From IMG/VR virus record IMGVR_UViG_3300045988_075215: a stretch of DNA of 39,214 nt. One strand, given 5' to 3'. The translations under genes were made by a program, and so were the position numbers. Positions 3,140-39,214 of this stretch are shown here, in pieces. How positions within the stretch are numbered: position 1 is the stretch's first letter; every line of letters begins with the position of its first letter. This DNA comes from a virus. The notes beneath the pieces were generated by a model that saw only the letters and a list, made by a program, of their open reading frames with translations, was not told the origin of the DNA and searched no databases.

Positions 3140-3338
3140 TATTCAGATTCTCCAACATTGCCACAAGCTCATTTTTTCTTTCAGCCAGTTTCTCTGATTC
3201 TGCAATTTCCTTTGCATACTCTTCCTTTGTGGCTCTGCCCATGGCAATCTTCGTGCCAATGTAATCATTGGCCTTCATAAGCTGATCAACGGCTCTGATC
3301 TCTGCCTCGATCTGCTCTCTTGTCATATTCTCATTCAT
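3129..3338 (-). CDS. 69-aa helical hypothetical protein translationally coupled to the RT
   Basis: Its ATG overlaps the RT stop (ATGA at 3335-3338), with AAAGGAGGA lying inside the RT 3' end. Confidence 0.55.
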   Translation of the reverse strand: MNENMTREQIEAEIRAVDQLMKANDYIGTKIAMGRATKEEYAKEIAESEKLAERKNELVAMLENLNNEE

Positions 3339-4627
3339 GCTGCTATCCTCCTTTCCTCTGAGTATTCAGGTATTTGTGGTACATATACCCATTCTTTTAT
3401 GAATAGCCGGTTGAAAAGAATATCCATCCGCCGGATGGTTTTATATGCGTCTTTCTGCCCGGCGTATCCTCTCCATGATTGATATGCCTCTCTAACCTGG
3501 GCATAGGTCATTGATCCCTCCTCCGTCAGTTTGGCAAATTTCTTCAGCTTTGCTCTTTCCCTTGTGATGGATTCCCGGCATAGCTTTTTCACTACTTTTC
3601 CGGTATCCGTCAGAATAAATCTGGTTTTCAGGAACGTGAAGCCCCTGCTCAGCTTCACAATTTTGGTTTTCTTCTCATTGAGCTGTATGCCTAATTCTGC
3701 ATATTTCTCTCTGAGTACATCCCACACCATTTTCAGATATTCCTTATCCTGGTGAATGATGAGTGAATCATCCATATATCTCTCATACGGCCTGATCCGC
3801 AGCACTTCCTTCACATAATGATCCACCGGATCCGGATATGCCACGGCACATCCCTGGCAGATTTCACTCCCCAGGCCCAGGCCTCTGGCATACTCATCTC
3901 CATAGAGCATTGCTTCCTCTTTTTGTTTCTGCACCTCCATCATCTTCTCATCAGCAAAGGCATCAATGAAGCTCTCTGTGAGTTTGATGATCTTTTCATC
4001 CGTGAATTTCTTCCGGATCATTTCTTTGAGTGGCTCATGTGGTATGCTTGCAAAATAGTTCTTCAGATCTATTTGCAGCACATAGCCCTCAGTACCGTAT
4101 TTCTCATAGTATTCCTGAAGGAATTGAGATACCCGGTTGATTGCGTGGCTTATGCCCATTCCTTGCCTTGATGCCCCATTGTCATATATGAGGCTGTTGC
4201 TTAGAACTGGCATTAAAGCATTCTTTGAGAGGCTCTTTTGCGGCACCCTTTCTGCAAAATGAACACTCTGGATATGCCGGAGCTTCCCTCTTTCCATAAT
4301 GTCAAAAGGTATGAAGCCCTTCCGCACATCCTCTCCATTGATTAGTGCGTTGTGAGTTCTGCACAGATTTTTCCCAAGCTCAGAACCATATCTCTGCACA
4401 CTGGCCTTCCAGTTTACGCCTTTTCTCGCTTCCCTATAGGCTTGATACAAAGAGTTGTAATCTGCCACCCTGGCAAAATCATCATATTCTGAGAGCTTCT
4501 CTCTTCGGTTTTTCTCCCGCTCAGCTTTCCTCCTGAGTTCTCTCTGTGCGTGTCTTTCTTCGCTTGTCATATTGTAATTGTGCCCAGTTCCCCCTTGTAC
4601 GGTTCTGTGTGCTATCCCTAACCGCAT
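3335..4627 (-). CDS. DGR reverse transcriptase
   Basis: RT motifs seen: RGKLRHI, YDNGASRQGMG, QIDLKNYFASI, LGSEICQ (the DGR-type LGxxxSQ position) and YMDD. It lies directly downstream of the TR. A possible in-frame CTG start at 4660 is preceded by GGGAGGTG. Confidence 0.9.
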   Translation of the reverse strand: MRLGIAHRTVQGGTGHNYNMTSEERHAQRELRRKAEREKNRREKLSEYDDFARVADYNSLYQAYREARKGVNWKASVQRYGSELGKNLCRTHNALINGEDVRKGFIPFDIMERGKLRHIQSVHFAERVPQKSLSKNALMPVLSNSLIYDNGASRQGMGISHAINRVSQFLQEYYEKYGTEGYVLQIDLKNYFASIPHEPLKEMIRKKFTDEKIIKLTESFIDAFADEKMMEVQKQKEEAMLYGDEYARGLGLGSEICQGCAVAYPDPVDHYVKEVLRIRPYERYMDDSLIIHQDKEYLKMVWDVLREKYAELGIQLNEKKTKIVKLSRGFTFLKTRFILTDTGKVVKKLCRESITRERAKLKKFAKLTEEGSMTYAQVREAYQSWRGYAGQKDAYKTIRRMDILFNRLFIKEWVYVPQIPEYSEERRIAA

Positions 4628-4848
4628 AATGGTATGGGTATGAAATGCACCTCTGCACAGCCTTCACCTCCCTTCCGATTTTTGCACCATGCAAGCAGCG
4701 TCCACCCATCCATATCAAGCATGATCCCGCTCATGGCACCAGAGCGGAATGAGATAATTTACATTTGCATGAAGGTCATTCACTCCTTCCTCTGTCTGAT
4801 ATTGATTTCTGCTTTTTACGGCGTACTTTGTCGAATCATTATGACAGT
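4628..4848 (-). ncRNA. Spacer between the TR and the RT start, presumed part of the DGR template RNA
   Basis: Assigned by position only. About 220 nt with no convincing ORF, and it contains the hairpin ccgctc-N9-gagcgg. Confidence 0.35.
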
Positions 4849-4972
4849 GAATCAGAGCGGCACCCGGAAGTCATTGGTGCAGTTGTTGTTGTTGGCATTG
4901 CCGTTGTTGTTGACATTGCAGGCATTGGTAGAATTGCCACCATTCACGGACAGAAGCCACCAGTTGGCCCGG
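4849..4972 (-). repeat. DGR template repeat (TR), 124 bp
   Basis: It aligns without gaps to 5493-5616 and 29326-29449. The minus strand reads RANWWLLSVNGGNSTNACNVNNNGNANNNNCTNDFRVPL*, with 14 AAY codons. Confidence 0.92.
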
Positions 4973-5003
4973 AGCGTAATTGTGCAGTGAATAACCTATG
5001 TTT

Positions 5004-5414
5004 TTACTTCTTTCTCTCTATGAGTTTCACTCTGTCCTTCCAGTTCCTCAATTTTTCATCTTCCTTCAGCATCAGGTTTAGCAGAGTATCAAATTTGTTC
5101 CAGTCTACCGGAAGGGTTGTGGCCAGATAATTGATGAGGTTGTATATATCCCGGAGTGTGTCTATTGCTTCCTGGGCTTTTCTCTTCCTCTCCGCAACCT
5201 TTTCCTCCGTGTATGTCCATATTCCATTGGCCATCCTGATCTCGTCATATAATTTCTGGCATAGGGCACACATTGGTTTTGAGAATACATCTCTCCATCC
5301 CTTTGGAACCACATTGGTGTTCCATACAAGCCTTGTGGCCTCTGCTCTTATTTCTTCAGCAAGCTGAAGCACATCTAACTGAGATTTTCCTCTCAGCCTG
5401 GCCAAAACGCTCAT
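5004..5414 (-). CDS. avd: Accessory variability determinant (Avd-like four-helix-bundle protein)
   Basis: 136 aa, basic and all-helical in character. It sits in the canonical position between the target gene and the TR, with a GGGAGGTG RBS. Confidence 0.7.
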   Translation of the reverse strand: MSVLARLRGKSQLDVLQLAEEIRAEATRLVWNTNVVPKGWRDVFSKPMCALCQKLYDEIRMANGIWTYTEEKVAERKRKAQEAIDTLRDIYNLINYLATTLPVDWNKFDTLLNLMLKEDEKLRNWKDRVKLIERKK

Positions 5415-5443: not shown

Positions 5444-5466
5444 CCCGCCACCTGGAAAGTGGCGGG
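5444..5466 (-). promoter_or_regulatory. GC-rich hairpin downstream of VR1 (DGR target-recognition element)
   Basis: Stem cccgccac/gtggcggg (8 bp) with a 7-nt loop, 26 nt beyond the VR1 end. There is no U-tract, so it is not a typical terminator. Confidence 0.7.
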
Positions 5467-5477
5467 ATTGTTCCTGA

Positions 5478-6437
5478 TTATTCCGTGATTCGGAAGCAGA
5501 GCGGCACCCGGAAGTCATAGGTGCAGTTGTTGTAGTCGGCACTGCCGTTGTTGCCGACACGGCAGGCATAGGTAGAAGTGCCACCAGTCACGGACAGAAG
5601 CCCCCAGCTGGCCCGGCTTCCGCCGTCACCGGCCCCTTTGATGCGGCTTCTAAAGCTATTCGCAAATGCCGGATACTGAACCGCCTGGCCTGCACTCCAT
5701 CCCTTTGTGCCCCATACTACAGATCCAAATACTTCATACTCTGAAGGGATCCACAGCTTTCCAAGGTCTGCCCATCCCCATGAGTTTGAATCTGTCAGAG
5801 TTCCGGATCCGGAGTATCTATTTTCCAGAAGGAACCTTTTACTACTAATCACGCTCTGCAATTCTTTAGGCAGCTTTGACACCAAGCCATCCAGAAAGCT
5901 CTTGACTGTTGATTTCAAATAAGGTGCTGCATTTGCAGAGGTTCCGTTGTTATTGTTTTCTGTGAACCATTTCACAGTTTCCGGGTAGCAGTCTTTGGTT
6001 CCCCAGTCAATATGCCATCCAAGCTCCTGATCTGTGGTTCCAGTGTATGTATTGATGCCCAGGATCTCCGGCTTCATAGTGTAGCTTCCCACTGTGATGG
6101 TCATGAAGTCATGCACATGGATTCCATCCAGGTTGTGTGCTGCCAGTCTCGCCTTGATCCATCTCCAAGGGTCAGAGTATTTTGCAATCTCCTCTGCAAA
6201 TCTCACTGTAAGATCTACCCCCTGGTAGTTTTTATCTCCTTCCTCAATGGCAAAATTGCAGTGAGCATTTTCCTCATTGATCTGTTTTGCACCGTACTCA
6301 TCACCCTCCTGGGTGTATGGTGTCTGGTCTGTGTAGCTGAATGTGCCGTCAGAGTTTGTGGCCTGGGAAAATTTGCGATCCGTGGCCAACTCCTCATTGA
6401 TCACATCATCCTTGTAATCTGTTTTTAAGATTGACAT
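5478..6437 (-). CDS. DGR target protein 1: tail fibre/receptor-binding protein with C-terminal variable region
   Basis: 319 aa and the last gene of the tail module. The C-terminus …GGSRASWGLLSVTGGTSTYACRVGNNGSADYNNCTYDFRVPLCFRITE is encoded by VR1. Confidence 0.85.
   Translation of the reverse strand: MSILKTDYKDDVINEELATDRKFSQATNSDGTFSYTDQTPYTQEGDEYGAKQINEENAHCNFAIEEGDKNYQGVDLTVRFAEEIAKYSDPWRWIKARLAAHNLDGIHVHDFMTITVGSYTMKPEILGINTYTGTTDQELGWHIDWGTKDCYPETVKWFTENNNNGTSANAAPYLKSTVKSFLDGLVSKLPKELQSVISSKRFLLENRYSGSGTLTDSNSWGWADLGKLWIPSEYEVFGSVVWGTKGWSAGQAVQYPAFANSFRSRIKGAGDGGSRASWGLLSVTGGTSTYACRVGNNGSADYNNCTYDFRVPLCFRITE
5493..5616 (-). repeat. DGR variable repeat 1 (VR1)
   Basis: 124 bp with 14 mismatches to the TR. 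Thirteen are at TR adenines (plus-strand T) and one is elsewhere (4959). Confidence 0.92.
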
Positions 6438-6451
6438 TTCTTTCCTCCTTG

Positions 6452-7159
6452 TTATTCATTGTTTTCTGTCCGTGGCAGTTTGAATGGGAAGTATTCCCGG
6501 CCCATACGATATGGCAACCTCCTTTCTTCTTTCTCCTCCTTCAGGATCTCAGGATCCTCAAATGGGAAATACTGTCCGCCCAATCTGTACGGCAGCCGCC
6601 TCTTAGGTGTAATAACCGGCGGTTTATGGTATGGTGCAGGGCTCTTGAATGGATGATAAGCCCCGCCAAACCTGGAACCAAAGGCAAAAGGCAGCCGCAG
6701 TTTTGAAGGCTTCACCGGCTCCGGTATTCTCGGATCTTTCAAAGGGAAATACCGTCCTCCCAGTCTGAATGGGATTGCATGAGGCCTGGTGTATAAAAAC
6801 CGCATTTCCTCATACATCTTCAGGCAGGCTGATTCTATGCGGTTCAGATCCGCAAATCCTATGAATGCCCCATTGTCTGCATATTCTGTCTTTTCTCCTA
6901 TGTCACAGCCAACATATTTGTTGATGGCTTCCAGGTTCTCTGATAATACGTTGATTTCATCCGCATAGGGATATTCCTGATAGTTCCGATCCGGCATTGC
7001 TCTCACAAATACCGGCCAAAACTGATGGGCCACTGCTCCCAGGAACTCAATATTGTTCTTGATCCGGTTGTAGTCCGTGATGTTGAAATAATCTCCGGTA
7101 TACTTCCCGCTCTCATCTGTGGAGGCTGCCCAGTCTGTTTTTGGTGTGATCCACTCCAT
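6452..7159 (-). CDS. Tail fibre-associated structural protein with C-terminal Pro/aromatic repeats
   Basis: It has an N-terminal PKTDW…DYNRIKNNIEFL motif typical of Firmicute phage fibre proteins. Four copies of LP[YF]R[LM]GG.YFPF..P occupy aa 129-229. Confidence 0.55.
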   Translation of the reverse strand: MEWITPKTDWAASTDESGKYTGDYFNITDYNRIKNNIEFLGAVAHQFWPVFVRAMPDRNYQEYPYADEINVLSENLEAINKYVGCDIGEKTEYADNGAFIGFADLNRIESACLKMYEEMRFLYTRPHAIPFRLGGRYFPLKDPRIPEPVKPSKLRLPFAFGSRFGGAYHPFKSPAPYHKPPVITPKRRLPYRLGGQYFPFEDPEILKEEKEERRLPYRMGREYFPFKLPRTENNE

Positions 7160-9409
7160 TTATACCTTCCTCCTTGCCACCAGAGTGCCGCTGAGGCTTC
7201 CTGAGAACTTCAGGCTCACCTCTTCCAACCGGATCATCAAATCATCCACATACCGGCTTTCCAGGTATGCCAGATCATTGCAATCCAGGATTGGATCTCC
7301 TCTGTATTCCAAATCATACTGATTTCCGCCTTTATAATAGGCTCCAACCCACTCCACCAGGTTTGCAGCGTCCTCCGCCGAACTGATCAGAGGGTTGTTC
7401 CAGGTCTGAATGCTTCCGGTGTTATTTAACTTTGTCACCGCCTGAGCTGTGCTGATGCTGTATTCATATCCCCTCACCGTCAGCACAACCTTTGTGGCTG
7501 TCTTTGGTGGCTTTGTGATCCTAACCTTGCACCAATAGGAGCTGCTGTCTGTGACTTTCGCCCCAAAATCCTGCTCCACATCATCCACAACGCACACAAC
7601 ACTCAGATCATGAACCGCATTGCCAAAATCAATCTCAAATTCTTCCTCCACGCCTGCTGCCAGGATGATCTCATCTGCTGTGAGATCCTTCAGCTCGGTT
7701 CCTCTTGCGTATATTGTCCGGATCACTCTCAGTTCCTTCACCTTTTCCAACTTCGTGCCGTTTGGCGTGGCCGTCAGCTCATCATAGGTGATCTCATAAT
7801 CTGTCTGAGATCCAAATTCTATCCTCTTCAGGTGGATCCGGTTGTGCGGCTTTGCCTTCGTGAACTCTATTGTGATTTTGTCGGTATCAATAAAATCATA
7901 GAAAACTATGGTTTTCTCCGTTATGCTCTTGCTCAGGAAGCTCTTCAGTTTCTTTCCGTTGTTGTATGTTGTGATCACGAACTTCACCGGCTGAATGCTT
8001 CCAAAAAGCAGCGTCAGGTTGTGGAAGGTATATGCACTCTCCATGGTGAGTGTTATCACCGGATTTTCTTCAAATGTTCCATCCTCTCCGCTGATGGATG
8101 CGCTCACATATCCCACCTGAATGTAGTTGCCGCTTCGTGGCATGAAATACTGCTGCCCATCTACTCTGGCATAGTCTTTTTCAAATGCTGCATACTCTGA
8201 ATATGGTTCATCAGACAGCAAGCACTCCACATTGCCATACTCTGCCACCTGGTTGGCTGATACGCCCTTTTCTGGCTCAAATGATGATTTTATGAGGATC
8301 AGCCCATCTCTGTTCTGCATAACCACTGAGCGGCCTGCATTTGCTATGAGCTGAAGGCATTCCTTGTGTTTTACCATAGGGAGCGGATTGTATACCGTGA
8401 TATTCTTCAGGTATGGATCTACCCAATATTTATCCTCGTTCATCCCGGCATCTTCAAATACATCCACAGCCAAATCAAAAAGGGTGATGCCGTTTGGCCG
8501 GTACTCACCCCTCTTGTATTCATCCTGCATATATTCAAAAACATCCACGGCTCCAAATTTTGCCGTTTTATCATCAGCACTCCATTCCTGCATATACAGT
8601 GTGCCGCCCTTCACCCATTCGATCTCTCCATCATTCAGGGTGTATCCATAGTACACTTGCATCTCCTGGCCGGTTTCCATGTAGTTGATCGCACTGTCCT
8701 CATTGTCCACATTGTAGTATTTATCCATGTTTTCAATGGTCACTGTAAAATCTACACTCGGAAGGCTCTCTGAAATTGGTGAGAGAGTGCTTTTCAGCTC
8801 TGCACTCACTATCTTTTCATTGTCCAACACAATTCCTATGCCAAAAACTATGTTGTAGATCCTGAAGCGTCCTATGCCGTTCACCATCTCCGTTGGTGTT
8901 ATCCTCATAAAGGTGGTGTTGTTGAATGTATCCTCTGTTTTGAACTCCGGCCCAGTATTTTCATACTCATTCTTTTCCGTGTCTGTTTCTATTGTCAGTT
9001 TTACCGGGTACGCATCCCCAAATTGCAACGTGATCCCCTTTATGTCCAGAGGATCCGCTGTTTTGAACCGGATTAGAACCGCCGGGGAGCCGCCCTGGCC
9101 AAGCATGGCCTCTGTTACTATCCCGGCATTATACAGTTCCTTTCCGCTTCCCTGCCTCGGCAGGAAGTACATACTCCTATCCACCTTTGAAAAATCATTC
9201 TCAAATGTGGCATATACCTTTTTCACCGTTTCCTCACTCAGAGGCTTTACGGTATCCGAAAAATAGGTGAAACTGCCGTCCTGCACTTGTGCTGCCGTCT
9301 GTGCCGCCTGGTTTACTAAACCCAGGCTAATTCTCATATATGATTTATTTCTGGCCGCCTGCTTCATGGCCTCTTTGTATGCTGTACTCACATACTGCAT
9401 ATTCATCAC
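7160..9409 (-). CDS. Large tail-tip/baseplate structural protein (Tal-like)
   Basis: 749 aa, lying after the Dit-like gene and the tape measure gene. It has an internal duplicated module (YATFENDFSKVDRSMYFLPRQG… and YAAFEKDYARVDGQQYFMPRSG…). Confidence 0.55.
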   Translation of the reverse strand: MMNMQYVSTAYKEAMKQAARNKSYMRISLGLVNQAAQTAAQVQDGSFTYFSDTVKPLSEETVKKVYATFENDFSKVDRSMYFLPRQGSGKELYNAGIVTEAMLGQGGSPAVLIRFKTADPLDIKGITLQFGDAYPVKLTIETDTEKNEYENTGPEFKTEDTFNNTTFMRITPTEMVNGIGRFRIYNIVFGIGIVLDNEKIVSAELKSTLSPISESLPSVDFTVTIENMDKYYNVDNEDSAINYMETGQEMQVYYGYTLNDGEIEWVKGGTLYMQEWSADDKTAKFGAVDVFEYMQDEYKRGEYRPNGITLFDLAVDVFEDAGMNEDKYWVDPYLKNITVYNPLPMVKHKECLQLIANAGRSVVMQNRDGLILIKSSFEPEKGVSANQVAEYGNVECLLSDEPYSEYAAFEKDYARVDGQQYFMPRSGNYIQVGYVSASISGEDGTFEENPVITLTMESAYTFHNLTLLFGSIQPVKFVITTYNNGKKLKSFLSKSITEKTIVFYDFIDTDKITIEFTKAKPHNRIHLKRIEFGSQTDYEITYDELTATPNGTKLEKVKELRVIRTIYARGTELKDLTADEIILAAGVEEEFEIDFGNAVHDLSVVCVVDDVEQDFGAKVTDSSSYWCKVRITKPPKTATKVVLTVRGYEYSISTAQAVTKLNNTGSIQTWNNPLISSAEDAANLVEWVGAYYKGGNQYDLEYRGDPILDCNDLAYLESRYVDDLMIRLEEVSLKFSGSLSGTLVARRKV

Positions 9410-9796: not shown

Positions 9797-12700
9797 TTAT
9801 GCGTTGGCCATCTGATAGCCTTTTCTCCTTCTGTATTTGTCCGTCTGTTCTACCAGTGTCTTGCTGTCAAGCTGCACAATGGTCTGAATGGTCTGGTACT
9901 CGCTTCCGCTGTCCATATCTCCAATGATTGCCCTCAGGTTCACTGAGATGATCTCTCCGATCCTTCCGGCTATCTTATCCATCCATCCGGTATTGTTTTC
10001 CAGTGGAACCACAGCCTCCTGCCCGGCTTCACCTACCATGGCCAGTGTGGCCTTGTCGATCACCCCGCCGGTTGCAAGTCTCGGTATTGAGATTTCTCCA
10101 ATGGTTGAGATGTTGAAGCCAAATGTTTCACCACCGATCTCCGGCACCCAGTCTGGTACATCAAAGCTCAGCCTATTCAAAGCTCTGATCATTCCATTCA
10201 GCCCTCTGATCGCACCGTTGGCCATCTTCTCCACTCCGCCTATGATGCTGTTGATCACACCTTTGATGGAGCTCCAAATTCCGTTGAAGATAGTCACAAC
10301 CGTGGTTTTCATGGTTCCCCACACATTTGCCCACACGGTTTTTATACCGTTCAGGGCAGTGCTGATCCCGCTTGATATGGTTCCCATGGTGGTTGTGATG
10401 GTGCTCTTGATACTTCCAAAAATCGTGCTAACAGTTGTTTTCACGCTTGTAAATATCGTACTGAATACCGTTTTGATTGTATTCAGAACTGTGCTGATGG
10501 TGGTGCTTATCGTGTTGATCGTGGTTGTGATCACCGACTTGATAGCATTCCAGATGGTTGTTACCGTGGTTTTGATGGCGTTCCAAATTGTCTCAAATAT
10601 CGTTTTGATTGTATTCAGAACTGTGCTGATCACTGTGGATACCGCACTGATGGCCGTGGATACTATGGTTTTCATAGCAGACCATATTGTGCTCAGTATC
10701 GTTTGCATGGCCTCCCAAATGGATGAGAAGAAGGTTTTTATACCCTCCCATGCTCTATCCCAGTCACCGGTGAAAACTCCGGCTATGAAGTCAATGAGGC
10801 CTCCCAGGGCATCAAAGATGTTGCCTACTACATCAGCAACTACCCCTGCCACCTTCAGGAATACATTTCCAACTATTTCAAGTTTTGCAGCGATCACCGG
10901 AGCAATGTTGGTGATAAACCACTCTATGAATGGCTGTAGCGTCTGCTCCCATATATCTTTCACCGCATCAGCAATTTTGCCTATGAGCTCCAATCCTTTA
11001 TTGATTGCAGGCTGTATATGCTCATCTATGAGCGGCCCAACCTTTTCCTGAAGCCCCTTCAGCACCGGCAGAATGTGTGTGTTGTATGCGTCAAGGCATA
11101 CAGAGGCAATGGAGCTGAAGCCGCTTGCCAATGAGTTGAACATTGGAGCAACATGCTGATCATATACCTCATTCGCTTTTGTGAATGTATCATCCACCAC
11201 TTTCTTGATATTTCCCAGTGCGTCTGCCGCCACTCCCAGGAGCTCATCAAGAGTGCTTTTGAAGCCTTCCTGATTTTCTATAAAAGGCCTCGTTATCATA
11301 TCCAGAACATCCCGGCTGATCTTTCCGGCCAGTTCGTTTATGCCCATCTGTGCATCTGCAAAAATGCCTATCAGATTGGCGGTTGCCTGCTGTGCGTTCT
11401 CTCCTCCAAATGCGGAGAAGATATTTGCTGCTGCCTGAGCAAAATTTCCCTGAATCGTCACGATCTCGGAGCCTATATCAAACATAGACACCAGATGCTT
11501 CTTGATCCTCTCTTTGTTCTGATCCAGGTATTTGTTGATTCCGCCCAGGATATTGGTTGCAATCGTTATTCCAACGCTTGCCATGGCTCCTGCCTGCTGC
11601 CCCAGTGAATATGCCAGGGAATTTGCAAAGCCGTTTGCCGCCGCAACCACTTCCGGTGCCGTGAATATTTCCCTGATGCTCTTCTTTATGCCGTCCACAG
11701 CCTTTGTGATGCCGCTCAGGTCTACATCTCCAAGCCCTGCCTTGAATCCATCCTTGAAAAGCTGCTGCAATTCCTTCAGCCTCTCTATGAGTTTTTCCAG
11801 TGCCGGGTTCAGGGTTTCATCTGTTTCATTTGCAGCGTCAACTATGTTCTCACTCAGGCCGCCTCCCGCTGCTCCGCCGCCTGATCCGGATCCGCCGCTT
11901 CCTGAATCATCATTCTTTGTCAGAGAATGAATCTCATCAAATGATGCCAGGCCTGCATATTCTTTTGCCGCCTTTTTGGCTGAAGATCCCGCTTTATTCG
12001 TTGCACCGCCCAGGTTCTCCATGGAACCGGTTGCTGTGTCCGCAGCTCCCCCAATTCCTTCCACCGCCGTGGTGGTTGTCTTTGTGTTCTTTCCGGTAAT
12101 TTTCGCAATCATGTTGCTGAATGCGTCTGTTACCGTTAGGATCTTACTCAGTAGTGCATTGAGCACTCTGATCACCGGTGTGAATACTACAATGAGCCCC
12201 TTGCCAATCGTGGCCTTCAGAGCGTTGAATCTCTCTGTGAGCACTCTCACCTGGTTGGCCCATCCGTCTGATGTTCTCGCAAAATCTCCCTGAGCATCCG
12301 CTGTCACAGACATAAGATAGTTATATCTGAGCATGGCCTGCTCCTGCTGTGTCATGGAGTTGTAGGCTTTTGTGATGCCCTGGCTTAAAGCGTAAGCCTC
12401 CAAATTGGCCACGCTCATGTTTATACCTAACTGTTTCAGCGGCTCTGTTTCTCCTGAGATACCTGAGCGGATTTTCTCAAATGCCACATCTGTATCCAGG
12501 TTATAGAAGGAAGCCATATCTGCTGCCAGTCCAGTCATTTGCATGGACATTTCAGCCGCCGCCTGGGTTGTGAAGCCCATTGATTTCAGCATGGCCCCCA
12601 ATGTTGATGAGTATTTTTTAGCACTTGTTTCTGAGAGGCCGAACTCTTCAAGCGCATCCCTGGCAAAACGGTTTATCGTCTCCGACATTGCCCCAAATGT

Positions 12701-12955
12701 TACATCCACCACATTCTGAACTTCGGCCAGGTCAGAGCCTAATTCAATACAGCTCTTTCCAAATCGAATGATCGCAGCGGCGGACAGTGCAATACTTATT
12801 GCCTTTCCTATTTTGCCAAATGCGCTCTTTATTTTGTCGGTCTGCCTCTCCACTGCACTTGTGGCTGATTTCGTCTGCTGCTGCACCTTTTTCAGCTCTT
12901 CATAGTAGGCTTTAGTCTGTGCCTCTATGATCACTTGCAGTTTTTCCAAGGTCAT
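9797..12955 (-). CDS. Tail tape measure protein
   Basis: About 1050 aa with helical repeats and a Gly-rich linker (GSGGSGSGGGAAGGG). It has a T/I/S-rich tandem repeat region. It follows the chaperone pair, and the probable start is MTLEKLQ (M26 of the ORF). Confidence 0.9.
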   Translation of the reverse strand: MTLEKLQVIIEAQTKAYYEELKKVQQQTKSATSAVERQTDKIKSAFGKIGKAISIALSAAAIIRFGKSCIELGSDLAEVQNVVDVTFGAMSETINRFARDALEEFGLSETSAKKYSSTLGAMLKSMGFTTQAAAEMSMQMTGLAADMASFYNLDTDVAFEKIRSGISGETEPLKQLGINMSVANLEAYALSQGITKAYNSMTQQEQAMLRYNYLMSVTADAQGDFARTSDGWANQVRVLTERFNALKATIGKGLIVVFTPVIRVLNALLSKILTVTDAFSNMIAKITGKNTKTTTTAVEGIGGAADTATGSMENLGGATNKAGSSAKKAAKEYAGLASFDEIHSLTKNDDSGSGGSGSGGGAAGGGLSENIVDAANETDETLNPALEKLIERLKELQQLFKDGFKAGLGDVDLSGITKAVDGIKKSIREIFTAPEVVAAANGFANSLAYSLGQQAGAMASVGITIATNILGGINKYLDQNKERIKKHLVSMFDIGSEIVTIQGNFAQAAANIFSAFGGENAQQATANLIGIFADAQMGINELAGKISRDVLDMITRPFIENQEGFKSTLDELLGVAADALGNIKKVVDDTFTKANEVYDQHVAPMFNSLASGFSSIASVCLDAYNTHILPVLKGLQEKVGPLIDEHIQPAINKGLELIGKIADAVKDIWEQTLQPFIEWFITNIAPVIAAKLEIVGNVFLKVAGVVADVVGNIFDALGGLIDFIAGVFTGDWDRAWEGIKTFFSSIWEAMQTILSTIWSAMKTIVSTAISAVSTVISTVLNTIKTIFETIWNAIKTTVTTIWNAIKSVITTTINTISTTISTVLNTIKTVFSTIFTSVKTTVSTIFGSIKSTITTTMGTISSGISTALNGIKTVWANVWGTMKTTVVTIFNGIWSSIKGVINSIIGGVEKMANGAIRGLNGMIRALNRLSFDVPDWVPEIGGETFGFNISTIGEISIPRLATGGVIDKATLAMVGEAGQEAVVPLENNTGWMDKIAGRIGEIISVNLRAIIGDMDSGSEYQTIQTIVQLDSKTLVEQTDKYRRRKGYQMANA

Positions 12956-13493
12956 TCCTTCCACTGCTTTCACCTCGCTCTTTGGCCATCCGTTCCCGGA
13001 ATGCCAAGTTGTGCCGGAAAATGTAATCATCCATTCTTGCCTTGTGGAGTTCCATTTCCGGGCTCAGCGTGGGCTTATCCCTACTCTCCTGCTCGGTGAA
13101 ATTTGTTTCCGCTGCCTCCTCTGTTTCCTTGTTACTGTATAATTCCGGGTAATACGCCGCAGGCATGATGAGTTGCGTTTCTTTGTTCATCAGTCTGCCA
13201 AGCACATTGCCCATCTGAAGTGCCTGGTTGAATAGGAGCATGATCTCATCCTTCAGCTCTGCCTCTCTGGCTTTCTGCTCATGTTCTTTCCTTCTGGCAT
13301 AGCTTTCAATAACATCATTTACCTCTCCCAGGCTCAGATCCCAAAAAAGTTGAGGGCTGTATCCGGCATCCAAAAATACCGGGTACAACCCCCATAATAG
13401 ATCTGTTACTGTTTCAGGTTCTTCTACAGAGCTTCCTCCTTCGCCTCCTGAAGAGCTCCGCTCATCTGGTTGCTGAGGTTTACGGAGAAAAAA
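12912..13493 (-). CDS. -1 frame extension of the tail assembly chaperone (gpT-like part of the G-T fusion)
   Basis: The -1 frame is open from the slippery site at 13493 to the stop at 12912. It has no good independent RBS or ATG (the track starts it at TTG 13388). Confidence 0.6.
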   Translation of the reverse strand, partial: FFLRKPQQPDERSSSGGEGGSSVEEPETVTDLLWGLYPVFLDAGYSPQLFWDLSLGEVNDVIESYARRKEHEQKAREAELKDEIMLLFNQALQMGNVLGRLMNKETQLIMPAAYYPELYSNKETEEAAETNFTEQESRDKPTLSPEMELHKARMDDYIFRHNLAFRERMAKERGESSGRNDLGKTASDHRGTD

Positions 13494-27972: not shown

Positions 27973-28608
27973 TCACTTATAGAAATTGTGGTTTCCCACT
28001 GTTTTTATGTATTCCAGGTTCTTTGAGTGCCAGGTTCCTTCTCCGTTGGATGTTGCCTCAAAATATAGGGCTCCTTCACTCTCATCCCAGTGATCTACCA
28101 TCACCATATAAAGTGCTTTGTAACAATCCGCATCCGGTTCTACATTCCAGTATCTTTCCCCTGGCATAACGGAGCTGAACTGGAAAACTCCGTCTTTTAT
28201 TTCAAATATCACATCCTCAATGGTTCCTGGGAAATCATCATCCCAAACCCTATTGAGAACCGTTCTGATCACCATGGCCTTCCCTTCAGTGCTCTCTCCT
28301 TCCGCCTCTGCCATTGCAATCCTGGCCAGTAAATAGCTTTCATACGCATCCCAGTCCGTTGAGTGCTCTTCTGTTGCCGTTGGCCGTTCTTCCCGGATAA
28401 ATACCACCTGAACCTTCTCCGGCTCCTCTGTGGCCGTCTCAGCGGCTTCAGGGAGCGGTTCTGGCTCATCCTCTTTCTTCACCGCTGTCATGCAGATGCA
28501 GGACACAGAAATAATTATGAGCATGATCCCCAGGAGCTTCATGTTTATCCGTTTTCTTCTCCTTCTTTTCCTTCTGGTTCGTGTCTTATTCTCCATAATC
28601 TGTGCCAA
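27973..28608 (-). CDS. Membrane-anchored SleB/CwlJ-type cell wall hydrolase (Hydrolase_2-like)
   Basis: It has a basic N-terminus and a TM segment (LLGIMLIIISVSCICMTAV). Catalytic-domain motifs seen: LLARIAMAEAEGES…VIRTVLNRV…QFSSV…ALYF. Confidence 0.7.
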   Translation of the reverse strand: MAQIMENKTRTRRKRRRRKRINMKLLGIMLIIISVSCICMTAVKKEDEPEPLPEAAETATEEPEKVQVVFIREERPTATEEHSTDWDAYESYLLARIAMAEAEGESTEGKAMVIRTVLNRVWDDDFPGTIEDVIFEIKDGVFQFSSVMPGERYWNVEPDADCYKALYMVMVDHWDESEGALYFEATSNGEGTWHSKNLEYIKTVGNHNFYK

Positions 28609-28819
28609 TCAGCTCCTCTCTCAGTTCTTCATACCTGGTTTCCAGGTGCCTGAAGCTCTCCTCCTGCCTCTTTATGCAAAGAAGCATACTCACCATGAAG
28701 CACAGTAGCAAAATGATCAATGATACCGCTGCCCTGTTGAAGTTTCTGGCCTTTTTCAGTTCATCCTCCATGCTCAGCTTCTCATTCAGCATTTCAAAAT
28801 ATTCTTTTTCTCCACTCAC
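28586..28819 (-). CDS. Small single-TM protein
   Basis: 77 aa with the hydrophobic segment AAVSLIILLLCFMVSMLLCI. Confidence 0.45.
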   Translation of the reverse strand: MSGEKEYFEMLNEKLSMEDELKKARNFNRAAVSLIILLLCFMVSMLLCIKRQEESFRHLETRYEELREELIGTDYGE

Positions 28820-29232
28820 TTTTTCGCCTCCTCTCCGGTTTTTACCTTCAGCCCTATTTTTTCAAAATAAAATTTTATTTTCCCCTCATGTTCCTCCACC
28901 ATCCCATACCTCACTGCTATGCTGTATGTGCTCACATCTCTTGCAAGCCGCTTAGGTATTCCTGATAACATTTCTCGGAATGTTTCCAGGTCGAAAGTTG
29001 CTTTGTATTTATTACACGATCTGCATGAAGGGAGCATATTCTCCACAGAATCCACTTTCAGCCCAAGTTCATCATCCATATACTCATAATTTTTCAGGCA
29101 GAGCACATGATCTGCATGAAAACCTTTGAATGGTATTTCACAACCGCAGTACGCACACCTCCCGCCGGTTTTTTCGTATACTTCCCGCCGTTCCTTCTGT
29201 GTGAGCTTTTTCCTCATTCTCTCACCCCGCAA
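28816..29232 (-). CDS. HNH endonuclease
   Basis: Motifs GGRCAYCGCEI…HADHV…PSCRSCNKYK. Confidence 0.8.
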   Translation of the reverse strand: MRGERMRKKLTQKERREVYEKTGGRCAYCGCEIPFKGFHADHVLCLKNYEYMDDELGLKVDSVENMLPSCRSCNKYKATFDLETFREMLSGIPKRLARDVSTYSIAVRYGMVEEHEGKIKFYFEKIGLKVKTGEEAKK

Positions 29233-29275: not shown

Positions 29276-29299
29276 CCTGCCGCCGGTTACAGCGGCAGG
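29276..29299 (-). promoter_or_regulatory. GC-rich hairpin downstream of VR2 (DGR target-recognition element)
   Basis: Stem cctgccgc/gcggcagg (8 bp) with an 8-nt loop, 26 nt beyond the VR2 end. This is the same spacing as at VR1. Confidence 0.7.
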
Positions 29300-29310
29300 A
29301 TTGTTTTTGA

Positions 29311-29937
29311 TTATCTCTTGATTGAGAAGCAGAGCGGCACCCGGAAGTCATTGGTGCAGTTGTAGTCGTTGGCATAGCCGAAGTAGTTGACAAGGGAGGC
29401 ATCGGTAGAATTGCCACCATACACGGACAGAAGCCACCAGGTGGCCCGGCTTCCTCCGTGTCCTCCCATCTTTATTCTGTTTCTCGGATCCTTGAAGATC
29501 TCTAACTGCTCCCCTTCCTTTGCATCAGAGAACCATTCTTCTCCAAACACCTCATATTCTGAAGGGAGCCACAGCTTCAGCATGAATTTCTCCTCTTCGC
29601 CGTCCACAACCTGGATGCACTCTCTTTCACAGATCACAGCTTTCAGTTCTTCCGGAAGCTGCTGCCATACCTTTTCATTCAAAGCCTTGCAGAGGTCACT
29701 CTTCTTGAAGCCTCCGGTGTTTCTTCCGTTCTCATTCCATGTAAATCTCTCCGCCATGGTGTCACGGCTGATGAAGTCCATTCTGTCCTCCGTGATATGA
29801 GCCACCTCATACACCATCTTTTCTCCGGTGAGGAGCTCATCCTCAATCTGATCTCCTACCTTCAGGCTTCCTGCTGCCACCAGGGCTGCAATGTCCTTCC
29901 ATGTGGTTCCTTCTGTTCTTCTGGTTGTCAAATTCAT
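29311..29937 (-). CDS. DGR target protein 2: stand-alone 208-aa paralogue of the target-1 C-terminal domain
   Basis: It shares LWLPSEYEVFG and …GGSRATWWLLSV…DFRVPLCF with target 1. Its 3' end is VR2. Confidence 0.85.
   Translation of the reverse strand: MNLTTRRTEGTTWKDIAALVAAGSLKVGDQIEDELLTGEKMVYEVAHITEDRMDFISRDTMAERFTWNENGRNTGGFKKSDLCKALNEKVWQQLPEELKAVICERECIQVVDGEEEKFMLKLWLPSEYEVFGEEWFSDAKEGEQLEIFKDPRNRIKMGGHGGSRATWWLLSVYGGNSTDASLVNYFGYANDYNCTNDFRVPLCFSIKR
29326..29449 (-). repeat. DGR variable repeat 2 (VR2)
   Basis: 124 bp with 13 mismatches to the TR. Twelve are at TR adenines and one is elsewhere (4919). Confidence 0.9.
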
Positions 29938-30241: not shown

Positions 30242-31243
30242 TTATCTCTTTTTGCGATCATAATCTTCAAAGTTTCTGATTGTTCGGAATACTCTTTTTG
30301 AGTTCACCCATCTCTGCAAATCAATGCAGATTTGCGGTGCGTTCCATTTTTCATACACCATCACATATGGATCAAACCCCAAATCTCTGAGTGTGTATAT
30401 TCTGTGAAGATCCTGCTCTATTGTGCTGTTGAAATTGATCAGGGTGTATACTGTCAGCCTTCTTCTATCCAAGCCGGTGATCTCCTTGAACATTTTCAAT
30501 TTCGGCACAATCAGATCCTCATCCTCCGGGTTATCCCACGCAAAATGCAGCATCTTCACCTTTAGCTTCTTTATGAGCTCAGTGTTTTTCTCTGTGAGCA
30601 GCCTTGCATCAAGCCCTTGGTTTATATCCACCCACGCCTTAGAATCCACAAGCTGCTGCAATATTTCCAGGTGCTCCGGGCAGGCCAGGAGGTTTGGATC
30701 CATGAGTTTAATCTCTTTTTGTCCTCTCCAAAACTCATCCAAATCTGCCACCTTCCTGCTTTTCTTTCCCTCTTTGCATCCCACTATGCAGAAATGGCAT
30801 CCTCTTGGGCGCCCTCTGCTTGTGAATCCGTATGCAGTATCAGTTATTCCATACAGCGAATAATCAGGGTATATATGCTCTGCTTCATATGGCAAAATGT
30901 CCTGGTAGGTTTTTCCTGCCTCTGTAATCGTCAAAGGTATTCGATCACTTTCTTCCAGTCCAACCTTCTTTATAAGCTCATCCCTCATGCTTCTGAATCG
31001 TTCTTGCAGCTCACCATGAATGAATCCGCTTCCACCATATTGCACTGCATCTGCATTCATTGGATAATCAAAAAACTCCGAAAAAGAGAAAACCCTGCTC
31101 ACATATATCTTTTCCATGTGGCCTGATAAAAGCGGGTAGTACCACTCCACTTCATCTCCTGCTGCCTTGTGATATGCAGAGAGCTTCATCATTGGCAAAT
31201 TGGGGTAGTTGTGGCCATCCACATCAATCAAGCCTACTCTCAT
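30242..31243 (-). CDS. Radical-SAM-superfamily-like protein with an atypical Cys motif
   Basis: It reads TSRGRPRGCHFCIVGC where a canonical enzyme has RGCxxxCxFC. The N-terminal LIDVD…PNLPMMKLSAYHK is reminiscent of phage B12-like/radical-SAM proteins. Confidence 0.45.
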   Translation of the reverse strand: MRVGLIDVDGHNYPNLPMMKLSAYHKAAGDEVEWYYPLLSGHMEKIYVSRVFSFSEFFDYPMNADAVQYGGSGFIHGELQERFRSMRDELIKKVGLEESDRIPLTITEAGKTYQDILPYEAEHIYPDYSLYGITDTAYGFTSRGRPRGCHFCIVGCKEGKKSRKVADLDEFWRGQKEIKLMDPNLLACPEHLEILQQLVDSKAWVDINQGLDARLLTEKNTELIKKLKVKMLHFAWDNPEDEDLIVPKLKMFKEITGLDRRRLTVYTLINFNSTIEQDLHRIYTLRDLGFDPYVMVYEKWNAPQICIDLQRWVNSKRVFRTIRNFEDYDRKKR

Positions 31244-31256
31244 TCCTGCTGCCTCC

Positions 31257-31697
31257 TTACATTCTTGGGCCCCTGAATATCACCACCATGGATGGGAATG
31301 GGGCTCCTGCTGCCGCCTGGCCAAATTTCAAGCGGCCTCTCACAAATCTCACCTCTGCCCGGTGCAGGATGTAATCATGGAAATACTTTGTATCCGTCCG
31401 GGCCGGTATGAGCATAACCACCAGGGTATTCTCCTTGTGGCCTTCCTCATAGCTTTTCTGCACCCAATCACCAATTTCTCTGCCGTATGGAGGATTGCAG
31501 AATACACGGTGCCCCCCCCAATCCTTCAAAAGGCCGTTCTCTTCTTTGGTGAAAAATGTCTCACATTTATGGTTTTTCTCATCAGCACACGGATCCAGAT
31601 CAAAGGCAAATTCCACATTGAGCTCATTGAAGAACTCCTGAGGTGTGGCCCACTGATCTGTTTTGCTGCTATACATCACATCCAAATTGGCCATCAC
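31257..31697 (-). CDS. dam: Phage-type DNA N6-adenine methyltransferase
   Basis: Motifs DQWATPQEFF…FDLDPCA…FCNPPYG…ARTDTKYFH. Confidence 0.85.
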   Translation of the reverse strand: MMANLDVMYSSKTDQWATPQEFFNELNVEFAFDLDPCADEKNHKCETFFTKEENGLLKDWGGHRVFCNPPYGREIGDWVQKSYEEGHKENTLVVMLIPARTDTKYFHDYILHRAEVRFVRGRLKFGQAAAGAPFPSMVVIFRGPRM

Positions 31698-37566: not shown

Positions 37567-37587
37567 GGGCATTTTTATGCCCTTTTT
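37567..37587 (+). promoter_or_regulatory. Small hairpin plus T5 immediately upstream of the integrase RBS
   Basis: Sequence gggcat-tttt-atgccc followed by ttttt, then AGGAGG (37588-93). Confidence 0.4.
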
Positions 37588-37600
37588 AGGAGGTTTTGCT

Positions 37601-39187
37601 GTGCATTTTGGAATTTATGGAAGAAAATCATATTTTAAGGACACCTCAGACAGTACACAGATGCAGTTTTCTGAAGGTGATAAATATATAGCTGAACACT
37701 TTTCCCCGGATGAGATTGAATCCGTCACATACTATGAGGATGATGGTTGGATCCGTTCTGATATGGATAGGCCGGATCTGAACCGCCTGAAGGATGATAT
37801 ACTTGCAGGACTCATCAATGTGGTGGTTATTTATAAAATAGACCGTCTGTGCTGTGATATGGCCGACTTTGTACCGTTCTATGCCTTCCTGAAGGATCAT
37901 GGTGTTAAATTCATCACCATCAAAGATGGCATTGATACCACCACGCCTATTGGAGAGGCCATGATGTACCTGGCTGTTATCTTCTCCGGCCTGGAAGTGC
38001 AAACCGACTCCCTCCGGATCACCGATAACATGAACCACCTGGCAGCGGAGGGCTTCTGGTGTGGAGGCAAGCCGCCCATTGGTTATGATATTCAGGAGAT
38101 CTCCCTGGGTGCAAAATCTCATAAAACCCTTGTTTTCAATGAGGATGAAATCCGATATAAAAACACTCTCATTGATATTTTCCTGGAAAACCATTTCTCC
38201 CTTCAGGGTATGGAGACCTACTGCAAAAACCATGGGATCACCTCCCTCAAAGGAAGTTTCCTCTCCACCACTCAGCTCTATAGTATGTTTGGCTCTCCCA
38301 TGTGCGTGGCCAACACTCCTGCTATGTATGATTATTTTGCGGATAAAGGATGCCAGATGAGTGAGGGAAGCCCAAGGGATGCCTGGGATGGAAAGCATGG
38401 GATCATTGTGTATGGCCGCACTATGGAGAAGAAAGTGAGCGGCAAAAAGAAACACATCCAGGCTCCTCCTGAGAACTGGCGTGTGAGTATCGGATACCAT
38501 GAGCCCTATATGACTGATGAGCGTTTCTTTGCCATTCAGGCTCAGTTTGGGCACAACGTATTCAGCAAGCAGGCCAAGTATGATCTCCCGCTGCTCAAAG
38601 GTTCCCTCCGGTGCAAATGTGGCCGCCTTATGTCCATGAGCCGGAAAAAGAAAGCTGATGGCTCTATTTCCACCTGGTACTATTGTCCCCGCCGGATGCG
38701 GAGCGGCGTTGAGGCTTGTGATATGAGCCAAGTCAAATCAGATCTCCTGGATAATAGGGTGATCAGTATCTTCCAGGAGATTGAACATGATCCTGCTGCC
38801 CTGAAAAAGTATCTGAAAGAAGAAAAGAAACAGCCGCAGGATAACGCCGCCGCTCTCCGGGCCGCCATGGAGAAATGCCAGGCCAAAATAGGCAAGCTCA
38901 CCGCCACCCTGAGCCTCAACTCTGAATCTGCTGCTGCAAAGTATATTGTGAATGAAATTGAGAAATTGGATATTGAGTATAATTCACTCAGGAAAAGAAT
39001 GCTGAGTGCAAATGCCGTTGATCGGAAGAATGCTCTCAACATGAAGAATGCTATGGAAAAAAGAGAGGAGATCATCCGCCTCCTCAATGATTTTGACAAC
39101 TTCACACCTAATGAGCGGAATGAGATTGCCAAGGATGTGCTGAAGGAATGTGTGTGGGATGGGAATACGCTTTTTCTTACGCTTTAA
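37601..39187 (+). CDS. Large serine recombinase (integrase)
   Basis: GTG start 7 nt after AGGAGG. The resolvase-type N-terminus reads HFGIYGRKS…VVIYKIDRL…ITIKDGIDTTTPIGEAM. A recombinase domain, a Cys-rich zinc ribbon (CKCG…CPRR) and a coiled coil follow. The track start at 37577 lacks an RBS. Confidence 0.85.
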   Translation: MHFGIYGRKSYFKDTSDSTQMQFSEGDKYIAEHFSPDEIESVTYYEDDGWIRSDMDRPDLNRLKDDILAGLINVVVIYKIDRLCCDMADFVPFYAFLKDHGVKFITIKDGIDTTTPIGEAMMYLAVIFSGLEVQTDSLRITDNMNHLAAEGFWCGGKPPIGYDIQEISLGAKSHKTLVFNEDEIRYKNTLIDIFLENHFSLQGMETYCKNHGITSLKGSFLSTTQLYSMFGSPMCVANTPAMYDYFADKGCQMSEGSPRDAWDGKHGIIVYGRTMEKKVSGKKKHIQAPPENWRVSIGYHEPYMTDERFFAIQAQFGHNVFSKQAKYDLPLLKGSLRCKCGRLMSMSRKKKADGSISTWYYCPRRMRSGVEACDMSQVKSDLLDNRVISIFQEIEHDPAALKKYLKEEKKQPQDNAAALRAAMEKCQAKIGKLTATLSLNSESAAAKYIVNEIEKLDIEYNSLRKRMLSANAVDRKNALNMKNAMEKREEIIRLLNDFDNFTPNERNEIAKDVLKECVWDGNTLFLTL

Positions 39188-39214
39188 TTTTCCCTTTTTT
39201 ATTTTGATACCCTC
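39116..39214 (+). repeat. Terminal overlap, copy 2 (identical to 1-99)
   Basis: Read directly. Confidence 0.95.

Follow-up and report, generated by a model that had tools for sequence, protein, structure and literature searches.

A non-coding repeat in a temperate gut phage genome as the very probable template of a recently active diversity-generating retroelement with two target genes

The DNA considered here is the IMG/VR virus record IMGVR_UViG_3300045988_075215 (39,214 nt, hereafter the window, meaning the whole stretch that was analysed), and our subject is a repeat at positions 4849-4972, which was examined as the putative template repeat (TR) of a diversity-generating retroelement (DGR). 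A repeat finder returned one three-copy family in the window, at 4814-5007, 5458-5651 and 29291-29484. Ungapped alignment delimited the three copies as the TR itself (124 nt, minus strand, non-coding with an in-frame TGA at 4852-4854) and two variable repeats, VR1 (5493-5616, minus strand, offset +644 from the TR) and VR2 (29326-29449, minus strand, offset +24477, at a distance of 24.5 kb). The edges of the homology are sharp at 4849 and 4972, and the TR flanks are unrelated on both sides. VR1 forms the C-terminal end of target gene 1 (5478-6437, minus strand, 319 aa), which closes the tail module and has VR1 as its last 41 codons. VR2 forms the C-terminal end of target gene 2 (29311-29937, minus strand, 208 aa), located in the early/replication-side module. 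Each VR ends 15 nt before the stop codon of its target. Both target proteins match the Pfam family DUF6273 (25.6 bits for target 1, E 1.1e-19 for target 2) and they are paralogous over 177 aa (38% identity, E 9e-27). The cassette around the TR lies entirely on the minus strand and is ordered as tail genes, target 1, an Avd-like open reading frame (ORF), the TR, a 270-nt non-coding stretch, a reverse transcriptase (RT) ORF, genes for small membrane proteins and a lysin.

The coding strand of the TR has the composition A32 C38 G28 T26, and in the frame of the two target ORFs its minus-strand translation reads RANWWLLSVNGGNSTNACNVNNNGNANNNNCTNDFRVPL*. No fewer than 28 of the 32 adenines constitute the first two bases of 14 AAY codons (8 AAC and 6 AAT), as an earlier note on this DNA had claimed; the other four reside in two ACC codons, one GAC codon and the TGA. 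Between the TR and VR1 there are 14 mismatches (4852, 4875, 4890, 4893, 4898, 4910, 4911, 4916, 4917, 4926, 4934, 4943, 4959 and 4964), 13 of which concern a coding-strand A, and between the TR and VR2 there are 13 (4852, 4887, 4890, 4899, 4904, 4905, 4908, 4916, 4917, 4919, 4926, 4944 and 4964), with 12 at a coding-strand A. These lists, obtained in a per-base recount over all four TR bases as the earlier note had proposed, reproduce those of that note position for position, and the changes concentrate on A. In VR1, 13 of the 32 A sites were changed against one of the 92 other sites (Fisher one-sided p = 3e-8); the corresponding enrichment for VR2 has a one-sided p of 1.5e-7. The sole non-A change in VR1 is T>G at 4959, which converts a TGG (Trp) codon to GGG (Gly), and the sole one in VR2 is G>C at 4919, which converts TGC (Cys) to TCC (Ser). 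The total of 25 adenine differences out of 27 that had been reported is thus correct as a count, but it includes position 4852, which the same note regarded as non-mutagenic; without this position the figure is 23 out of 25.

To place these differences in perspective we collected related genomes. A megablast of the cassette against the INPHARED phages gave no match, so that close DNA-level relatives are lacking among the annotated phages, and relatives were therefore sought through protein and pattern scans. The latter used 18-mer patterns of the initiation of mutagenic homing (IMH) sequence against GTDB genomes and JGI/ENA metagenomes, and only loci with a low non-A mismatch over all 124 nt were kept; most matches were chance hits in unrelated, mainly high-GC bacteria and were dropped. 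The relatives recovered comprise one IMG/VR contig, several ENA/JGI metagenome contigs and one contig of an Acetatifactor metagenome-assembled genome (MAG), all collinear with the window at 95-99% identity. Together with the window, five further TRs in their proper context (in genomes that are collinear with the window and 96.7-98.8% identical to it) and 13 further VRs gave a set of 6 TRs, 6 VR1s and 9 VR2s. A seventh TR candidate (L105, ENA OZGM01024633, 1082 nt) was dropped as a probable chimera on a contig with 1.5x coverage. In its positions 881-1082, 5' sequence of the target-2 gene runs into an unmutated TR (with the TR-type A at the equivalent of 4852) and 5 nt of the TR 3' flank, after which comes the Nextera adapter CTGTCTCTTATACACATCT. 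Most likely the chimera arose across the repeat, in the assembly or in a read; alternatively, the contig could represent a real TR/VR2 recombinant or a homing intermediate.

All 32 adenines are kept in each of the six TRs. When the 15 VRs were compared with their cognate TRs, 235 of 480 A cells appeared to be changed against 5 of 1375 non-A cells, which means that around 98% of the differences fall on one base, A, of a non-coding repeat; this bears out the adenine-specific mutagenesis that had been read from the window. With position 4852 excluded, 220 of 465 A cells were changed, to G in 118 cases, T in 63 and C in 39. No two of the 15 VRs are alike. The Trp encoded at 4959 and the Cys encoded at 4919 are unchanged in the other 13 VRs examined. 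The Trp codon that includes 4959 reads TGT (Cys) in both the TR and the VR1 of IMGVR_UViG_3300029419_000362. The contrast between template and recipient is equally clear from the mean pairwise differences within the six genomes, which amount to 17.8% for VR1, 2.6% for the rest of target 1, 1.0% for the TR and 0.4% for the spacer RNA described below. The pairwise values for VR1 range from 14.5 to 21.8%, while the TR, the spacer RNA and the Avd-like gene are strongly conserved, with a divergence of only 0.4-1.7%.

The few non-A changes that arose in the TR are informative with respect to the direction of transfer. A G/T polymorphism at plus-strand position 4945 of the TR is matched in VR1 and VR2 in all four genomes for which the three repeats are available, and in VR1 in two more; a G/T change at plus-strand position 4957, restricted to the TR of IMGVR_UViG_3300029419_000362, is present in the VR1 of that genome too. 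Since non-A alleles of the TR are found in the cognate VRs, the information flows from the TR to both VRs, and it continued to do so after these very similar genomes had diverged. The earlier note had held that a TR varying along with its VRs would speak against mutagenic homing, but this expectation was mis-framed: a DGR is expected to pass non-A changes of the TR on to the VRs, and their presence there counts in its favour. The same note considered the homing events to be probably recent. No date can be assigned to them; what stands is that the flanks differ by 0.4-2.6% against 17.8% for VR1, and that the non-A alleles of the TR have already reached the cognate VRs.

The design of the TR as a set of stop-free codons is also reflected in its products, since none of the 15 VRs contains a stop codon. 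A search with the target-2 protein yielded 87 full-length cluster representatives (clustered at 90% identity, 86-95% identical), in which the mean entropy reaches 2.78 bits over the 14 AAY columns but stays at 0.13 bits at the other positions. Variation is also seen, to a lower degree, in the two ACC codons and in the GAC codon of these representatives, and the mutagenised tract therefore extends to at least plus-strand position 4871; 3' of that position no variation at A sites was found in the 15 VRs or in the 87 representatives. The theoretical repertoire of 15^14, or about 3x10^16 variants, that had been calculated for the 14 AAY codons is arithmetically right (2.9e16) and a slight underestimate, because the adenines of the ACC and GAC codons vary too in the relatives. 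Within the same genome VR1 and VR2 differ at 17-21 of the 31 A sites, and pairs taken from different genomes differ at a mean of 17.5. The A-site comparison thus gave no indication of a within-genome similarity between VR1 and VR2, as might be expected for a shared ligand. As VR1 and VR2 from a shared genome resemble each other no more than VR1 and VR2 from separate genomes do, the two have diversified independently, in agreement with the independent homing into the two VRs that had been proposed.

The RT is encoded next to the TR by an intact ORF (3335-4627, minus strand, 430 aa) with a YMDD motif at residues 284-287, and was recognized by RVT_1 (E 7.7e-15) and phrog_1423 (E 3.9e-82). Among its PDB matches the Bordetella DGR RT (8ub7, E 2.4e-11) ranks first and the RTs of group II introns come after it, and the protein aligns end to end with Brt of Bordetella phage BPP-1 (25% identity, E 9e-19). 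A search of NCBIfam with the RT retrieved only sub-threshold hits to group II intron, Drt and retron models, with no DGR-specific model among them. From its sequence relationships the protein would be classified as an RT of the DGR type. In comparison with Brt it carries insertions around residues 205-262 (BLASTP gaps of 13 and 9 residues, ~22 in total), just upstream of the sequence LGSEICQ. The true start is probably the ATG at 4570 (resulting in a protein of 411 aa) and not that at 4627, because the first 19 codons of the longer ORF (4571-4627) lie inside the match to a structured RNA. The in-frame ATG at 4570 is located exactly at the end of that match and fits better to the N-termini of Brt and of the RT of Roseburia phage Shimadzu (LR596903.1); the ATG at 4627 falls within the paired part.

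The RNA in question occupies the spacer that separates the TR from the RT gene (4570-4840, minus strand) and is a full-length match to Rfam family RF03077, the RT-2 RNA (99.4 bits against a gathering score of 40, model positions 1-222). It is positioned directly 3' of the TR and 5' of the RT gene, and has the same location in the related contigs L002, L069 and L101. By analogy with the Bordetella system, the spacer would presumably be the portion of the DGR RNA by which cDNA synthesis is positioned or primed. In the original description of the RT motifs by Weinberg et al. only RT-10 was tied to a DGR, and the other motifs were left as belonging to either a retron or a DGR (PMC5737381). The genomic context would now place the RT-2 motif in a demonstrable DGR, and RT-2 would be the DGR spacer/priming RNA of the whole lineage.

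Between target 1 and the TR a small basic protein is encoded (5004-5414, minus strand, 136 aa, pI 9.39), for which the AlphaFold2 model (24 homologues, mean confidence score pLDDT 86) represents a four-helix bundle. The top Foldseek hits of this model are members of the 23S-rRNA-IVS family (2gsc and 2rld) and Bordetella Avd (4dwl; 8ub7_C, TMt 0.83). At the sequence level the protein shares 28% identity (E 2e-14) with orf23 of Shimadzu, which is annotated as Avd. The protein was designated Avd-like solely by its predicted fold, its homology to the Shimadzu Avd and its genomic context, and the assignment is inconclusive.

The 3' ends of the repeats carry a small but consistent difference that may allow donor and recipient to be told apart. 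The IMH*-like end of the TR (4849-4872, minus strand; GACTTCCGGGTGCCGCTCTGATTC) consists of a G+C-rich core followed by an A at 4852, the position that separates the TR from both VRs. The IMH-like end of VR1 (…CTCTGCTTC) occupies 5493-5516 and that of VR2 29326-29349, both on the minus strand. The common core CTTCCGGGTGCCGCTCTG is followed on the coding strand by A in 6/6 TRs and by C in 15/15 VRs at the equivalent of 4852, such that the VRs end in …CTCTGCTTC and the TR in …CTCTGATTC. The same contrast, TGA in the TR and TGC in the VR, is found in two more distant relatives, the DGR of L002/L003 (RT 62% identical) and that of Shimadzu (RT 53% identical). Position 4852 thus represents a fixed IMH*/IMH difference between donor and recipient at the 3' boundary, as had been suggested on the basis of the window.

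A second feature that distinguishes recipients from the donor is a GC-rich hairpin located 11 nt past the stop codon of both targets. After target 1 (5444-5466, minus strand; CCCGCCAC…GTGGCGGG) the DNA fold has a predicted energy of -10.9 kcal/mol (z -3.7) and after target 2 (29276-29299, minus strand; CCTGCCGC…GCGGCAGG) of -11.8 kcal/mol (z -5.1). The stems measure 8-10 bp, are conserved after 6/6 VR1 and 9/9 VR2 copies, and differ between VR1 and VR2 by two compensatory pair changes. In contrast, the sequence 3' of the TR in the window folds at just -0.9 kcal/mol, and no hairpin follows any TR, including those of L002 and Shimadzu. In the latter two a hairpin with a differently sequenced stem is present at the same place after each VR. 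The segments downstream of VR1 and VR2 (5444-5475 and 29276-29308), which lie past the TR homology, share the frame TAATCA(GG/AA)AACAATCC-stem-loop-stem-G(T/G)TAAC, and on this basis the signature of a recipient reaches ~60 nt past the IMH. Around 34% of DGRs have an inverted repeat of high GC content downstream of the IMH, and in BPP-1 a repeat of this sort is needed for efficient homing (PMC5758913 and reviewed therein).

The position of the hairpins just past a stop codon would also suit a transcription terminator of the target genes, and a consensus scan for terminators indeed flags both, but solely on the plus (antisense) strand. In the sense orientation neither hairpin is followed by a T-run. 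Moreover, 30 nt separate the VR1 hairpin from the start of the Avd-like gene, which has the same orientation and is probably part of the same transcript, and hairpins with different stems recur after each VR in L002 and Shimadzu, with none after any TR. Given in addition the role of such a repeat in BPP-1, we consider it unlikely that the hairpins are terminators instead of DGR recognition elements, although the two roles are not mutually exclusive. For the three repeats as such, the main alternatives are ordinary paralogy and a DGR that has become inactive. The targets are paralogous well beyond their VRs, so that part of the shared sequence is due to common descent, and one could imagine that selection and point mutation, or recombinational cassette switching, produced the repeats with no involvement of reverse transcription. 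Such a process gives no reason to expect 98% of the differences at a single base of a third, non-coding copy that itself keeps all its adenines. Nor does it account for a TR that has no ORF context, has unrelated flanks and sharp edges, and is situated between an Avd-like gene and an RT gene while adjoining an RT-associated structured RNA; paralogy is therefore extremely improbable as an explanation.

The second alternative, a fossil of which the VRs were once diversified and the differences have merely been inherited, would fit with the one non-A change in each VR of the window, as drift after homing would produce these, and with the report that the related two-target phage Lelie gave no read-level DGR signal when it was sequenced (Faecalibacterium prophage study, PMC11792537). 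Furthermore, the variation was compared between assemblies and not within a population, which leaves room for inheritance. However, the RT ORF is intact and includes the YMDD motif, the TR, spacer RNA and Avd-like gene diverge by 0.4-1.7% against 14.5-21.8% for VR1 in otherwise nearly identical genomes, and non-A alleles of the TR that are no older than this shallow clade have already reached both cognate VRs. In addition, the 15 VRs are all distinct. A fossil is therefore very unlikely. Several observations nevertheless weigh against a complete and recently active DGR. Two of the 27 differences in the window are non-A and affect otherwise invariant scaffold residues (Trp and Cys); they could result from point mutation after homing, a rare non-A error of the RT or a sequencing error. 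The VR cells are not phylogenetically independent, and the pooled p-value overstates the significance. All variation that was recorded lies between assemblies and not within one population. Motif 4 of the RT reads LGSEICQ where Brt has IGSLTSQ, thus with a Cys for a Ser. The Avd candidate has no sequence match in Pfam, NCBIfam, PHROGs or the PDB (phmmer), its hhalign comparison with Bordetella Avd (bAvd) was negative, and its Foldseek E-values are weak (0.025-0.4) even though the Avd/23S-rRNA-IVS family ranks first. Finally, a C-type-lectin fold was not confirmed for the targets: the AlphaFold2 model of target 2 is poor across the VR, with a pLDDT below 50 over residues 125-197, and Foldseek, a PDB profile search and hhalign against Mtd were uninformative.

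Set against these points are the A-specific pattern, a TR that is conserved next to VRs that are hypervariable across genomes, the tracking of non-A alleles, and the presence and order of the cassette parts, the candidate Avd among them, each of which was observed. On this evidence there is little doubt that 4849-4972 is the TR of a complete and recently active DGR that operates by canonical mutagenic retrohoming. The mechanism that we envisage follows the Bordetella system (reviewed in PMC5758913), from which cDNA synthesis, priming by the spacer RNA and the roles of Avd, IMH and hairpin are borrowed. The TR and the adjacent RT-2 spacer (4570-4840) would be transcribed as one RNA, and the RT, in conjunction with the Avd-like protein, would copy the TR into cDNA with misincorporation opposite template adenines only. 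The cDNA would then replace the 124 nt of VR1 in the tail-module gene (5478-6437) or of VR2 in the remote gene (29311-29937), with the recipient being told from the donor by the IMH-type 3' end and by the GC-rich hairpin, which follows the VR and not the TR. Because 28 of the 32 adenines are the first two bases of AAY codons, each round would yield stop-free NNY codons, specifying 15 amino acids, at 14 sites, which are presumably in contact with a ligand. A receptor-binding role of the targets is likewise something we infer from the Bordetella system.

The window starts and ends with an exact direct repeat of 99 nt (1-99 = 39116-39214) and was therefore taken as complete: it represents a circular or terminally redundant phage genome of ~39,115 bp, in a contig that is circularly permuted. 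Many of the metagenome contigs that encode the target-2 protein have a comparable length of 38-40 kb. The presence of a large serine integrase (37577-39187, plus strand, phrog_95) marks the phage as temperate. Collinear copies of the phage (L024, L069/L091, L089/L108) were also found on longer contigs of 61-81 kb and on a 68-kb contig of the Acetatifactor sp. MAG, the last of which suggests a host within the Lachnospiraceae. The tape-measure and tail genes (9797-13030, 7160-9409 and 6452-7159, all minus strand) are located 5' of target 1 in the direction of transcription. The one directly upstream of target 1 (6452-7159) encodes a protein of 235 aa with four to five short tandem peptide repeats, RLP[YF]..GG.YFPF, in its C-terminal half, and its sole family matches are the PHROGs phrog_18725 and phrog_30066, both of unknown function.

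Target 2 is flanked by genes for an HNH/Endonuclease VII-like protein (28816-29232), an endolysin- or cell-wall-hydrolase-like protein (27973-28608), a radical-SAM protein (30242-31243) and a DNA methyltransferase (31257-31697). It shares 39% identity with orf43 of Shimadzu, the gene that carries the second VR of that phage, and the neighbourhood resembles orf40-orf43 of Shimadzu, which include a cell wall hydrolase, methyltransferases and the second DGR target. Because target 2 is small (208 aa), is encoded among early, replication and methylase genes, and has kept this arrangement as far as Shimadzu, one may tentatively consider that it is a binder outside the virion and not a receptor-binding protein, but we regard this as rather doubtful. 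No N-terminal hydrophobic segment is evident by eye. Acting inside the lysogen or at its surface, a protein of this kind could for example serve superinfection exclusion, counter-defence or the modulation of the host surface. If target 2 were indeed a non-virion protein, one and the same template would let the DGR co-evolve a structural function with a non-structural one.

The element adds no new principle to what is known of DGRs, as all its secondary features have published precedent, and it will not surprise the specialist. Its value lies in being a clean and complete DGR of an abundant, uncultured temperate gut phage, with many near-identical copies in metagenomes and no close annotated relative. 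As such it provides a natural data set in which one invariant TR is combined with two independently diversified targets and dozens to hundreds of naturally selected VR variants, a panel that could be mined for the amino-acid preferences of the DUF6273 binding surface and for the 3' homing boundary. In addition, a genomic context (TR, RT-2, RT) is given to an Rfam motif with a function that was previously left open, and the two-target layout of Shimadzu, with a tail protein plus a remote small protein, is extended to another phage lineage associated with the Lachnospiraceae.

Comparison with known systems makes clear that the overall organization is that of BPP-1, in which the gene order and orientation mtd-avd-TR-brt, with a structured spacer and followed by lysis genes, equal those in the window. 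The mutagenesis restricted to A, the AAY-rich TR, the GC-rich IMH with a non-identical IMH* and the inverted repeat after the VR only are shared as well, and the model of the Avd-like protein superposes on bAvd. The differences are that the window has two targets, one of which lies 24.5 kb away, and that these belong to DUF6273 and show no detectable similarity to Mtd in sequence. Similarly, the Avd candidate lacks sequence similarity to bAvd, and the spacer belongs to RT-2 where Weinberg et al. put RT-10 in BPP-1. In the window, moreover, the hairpin is found ~26 nt past the end of the TR homology and has a loop of 4-7 nt, IMH and IMH* differ by a single base, and the host belongs to a lineage of Gram-positive gut anaerobes.

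Much closer is Shimadzu, the closest annotated phage as judged by its RT, its target-2 homologue orf43 and its 136-aa Avd. Tail fibre, Avd, TR and RT follow each other as in the window, a small hypothetical protein encoded among the early genes carries a second VR, and the VR1-TR spacing is 647 nt (644 nt in the window). The TGA/TGC difference at the repeat ends and a hairpin after each VR are shared as well. [quoted passage not shown] Shimadzu differs in its myovirus-type baseplate module, in the sequence of the TR and the number of AAY codons, and in its VR2, which has a shorter homology to the TR at the 5' end. A single TR that serves two VRs is likewise found in the Faecalibacterium phages Lelie/Toutatis and CP11 and in the gut phages nd4 and nd12, although the RTs of these two-target phages are only ~32-35% identical to that of the window. 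DUF6273 has been reported in other DGR targets (PMC11792537, PMC10743442), among them the 'large and small' targets of Lelie and CP11, which have the VR at the C-terminus of DUF6273 (PMC11792537). For nd4 and nd12 it was described that VR1 and VR2 diversified independently with no shared pattern (PMC10743442), as is the case in the window; the first target in these phages is a 'tentaclin' with an N-terminal VR, unlike target 1 here. Around 13% of DGRs have two targets and non-adjacent targets within a prophage are common, and the arrangement in the window, with one template, a tail-module target and a remote target, is in line with this published precedent.

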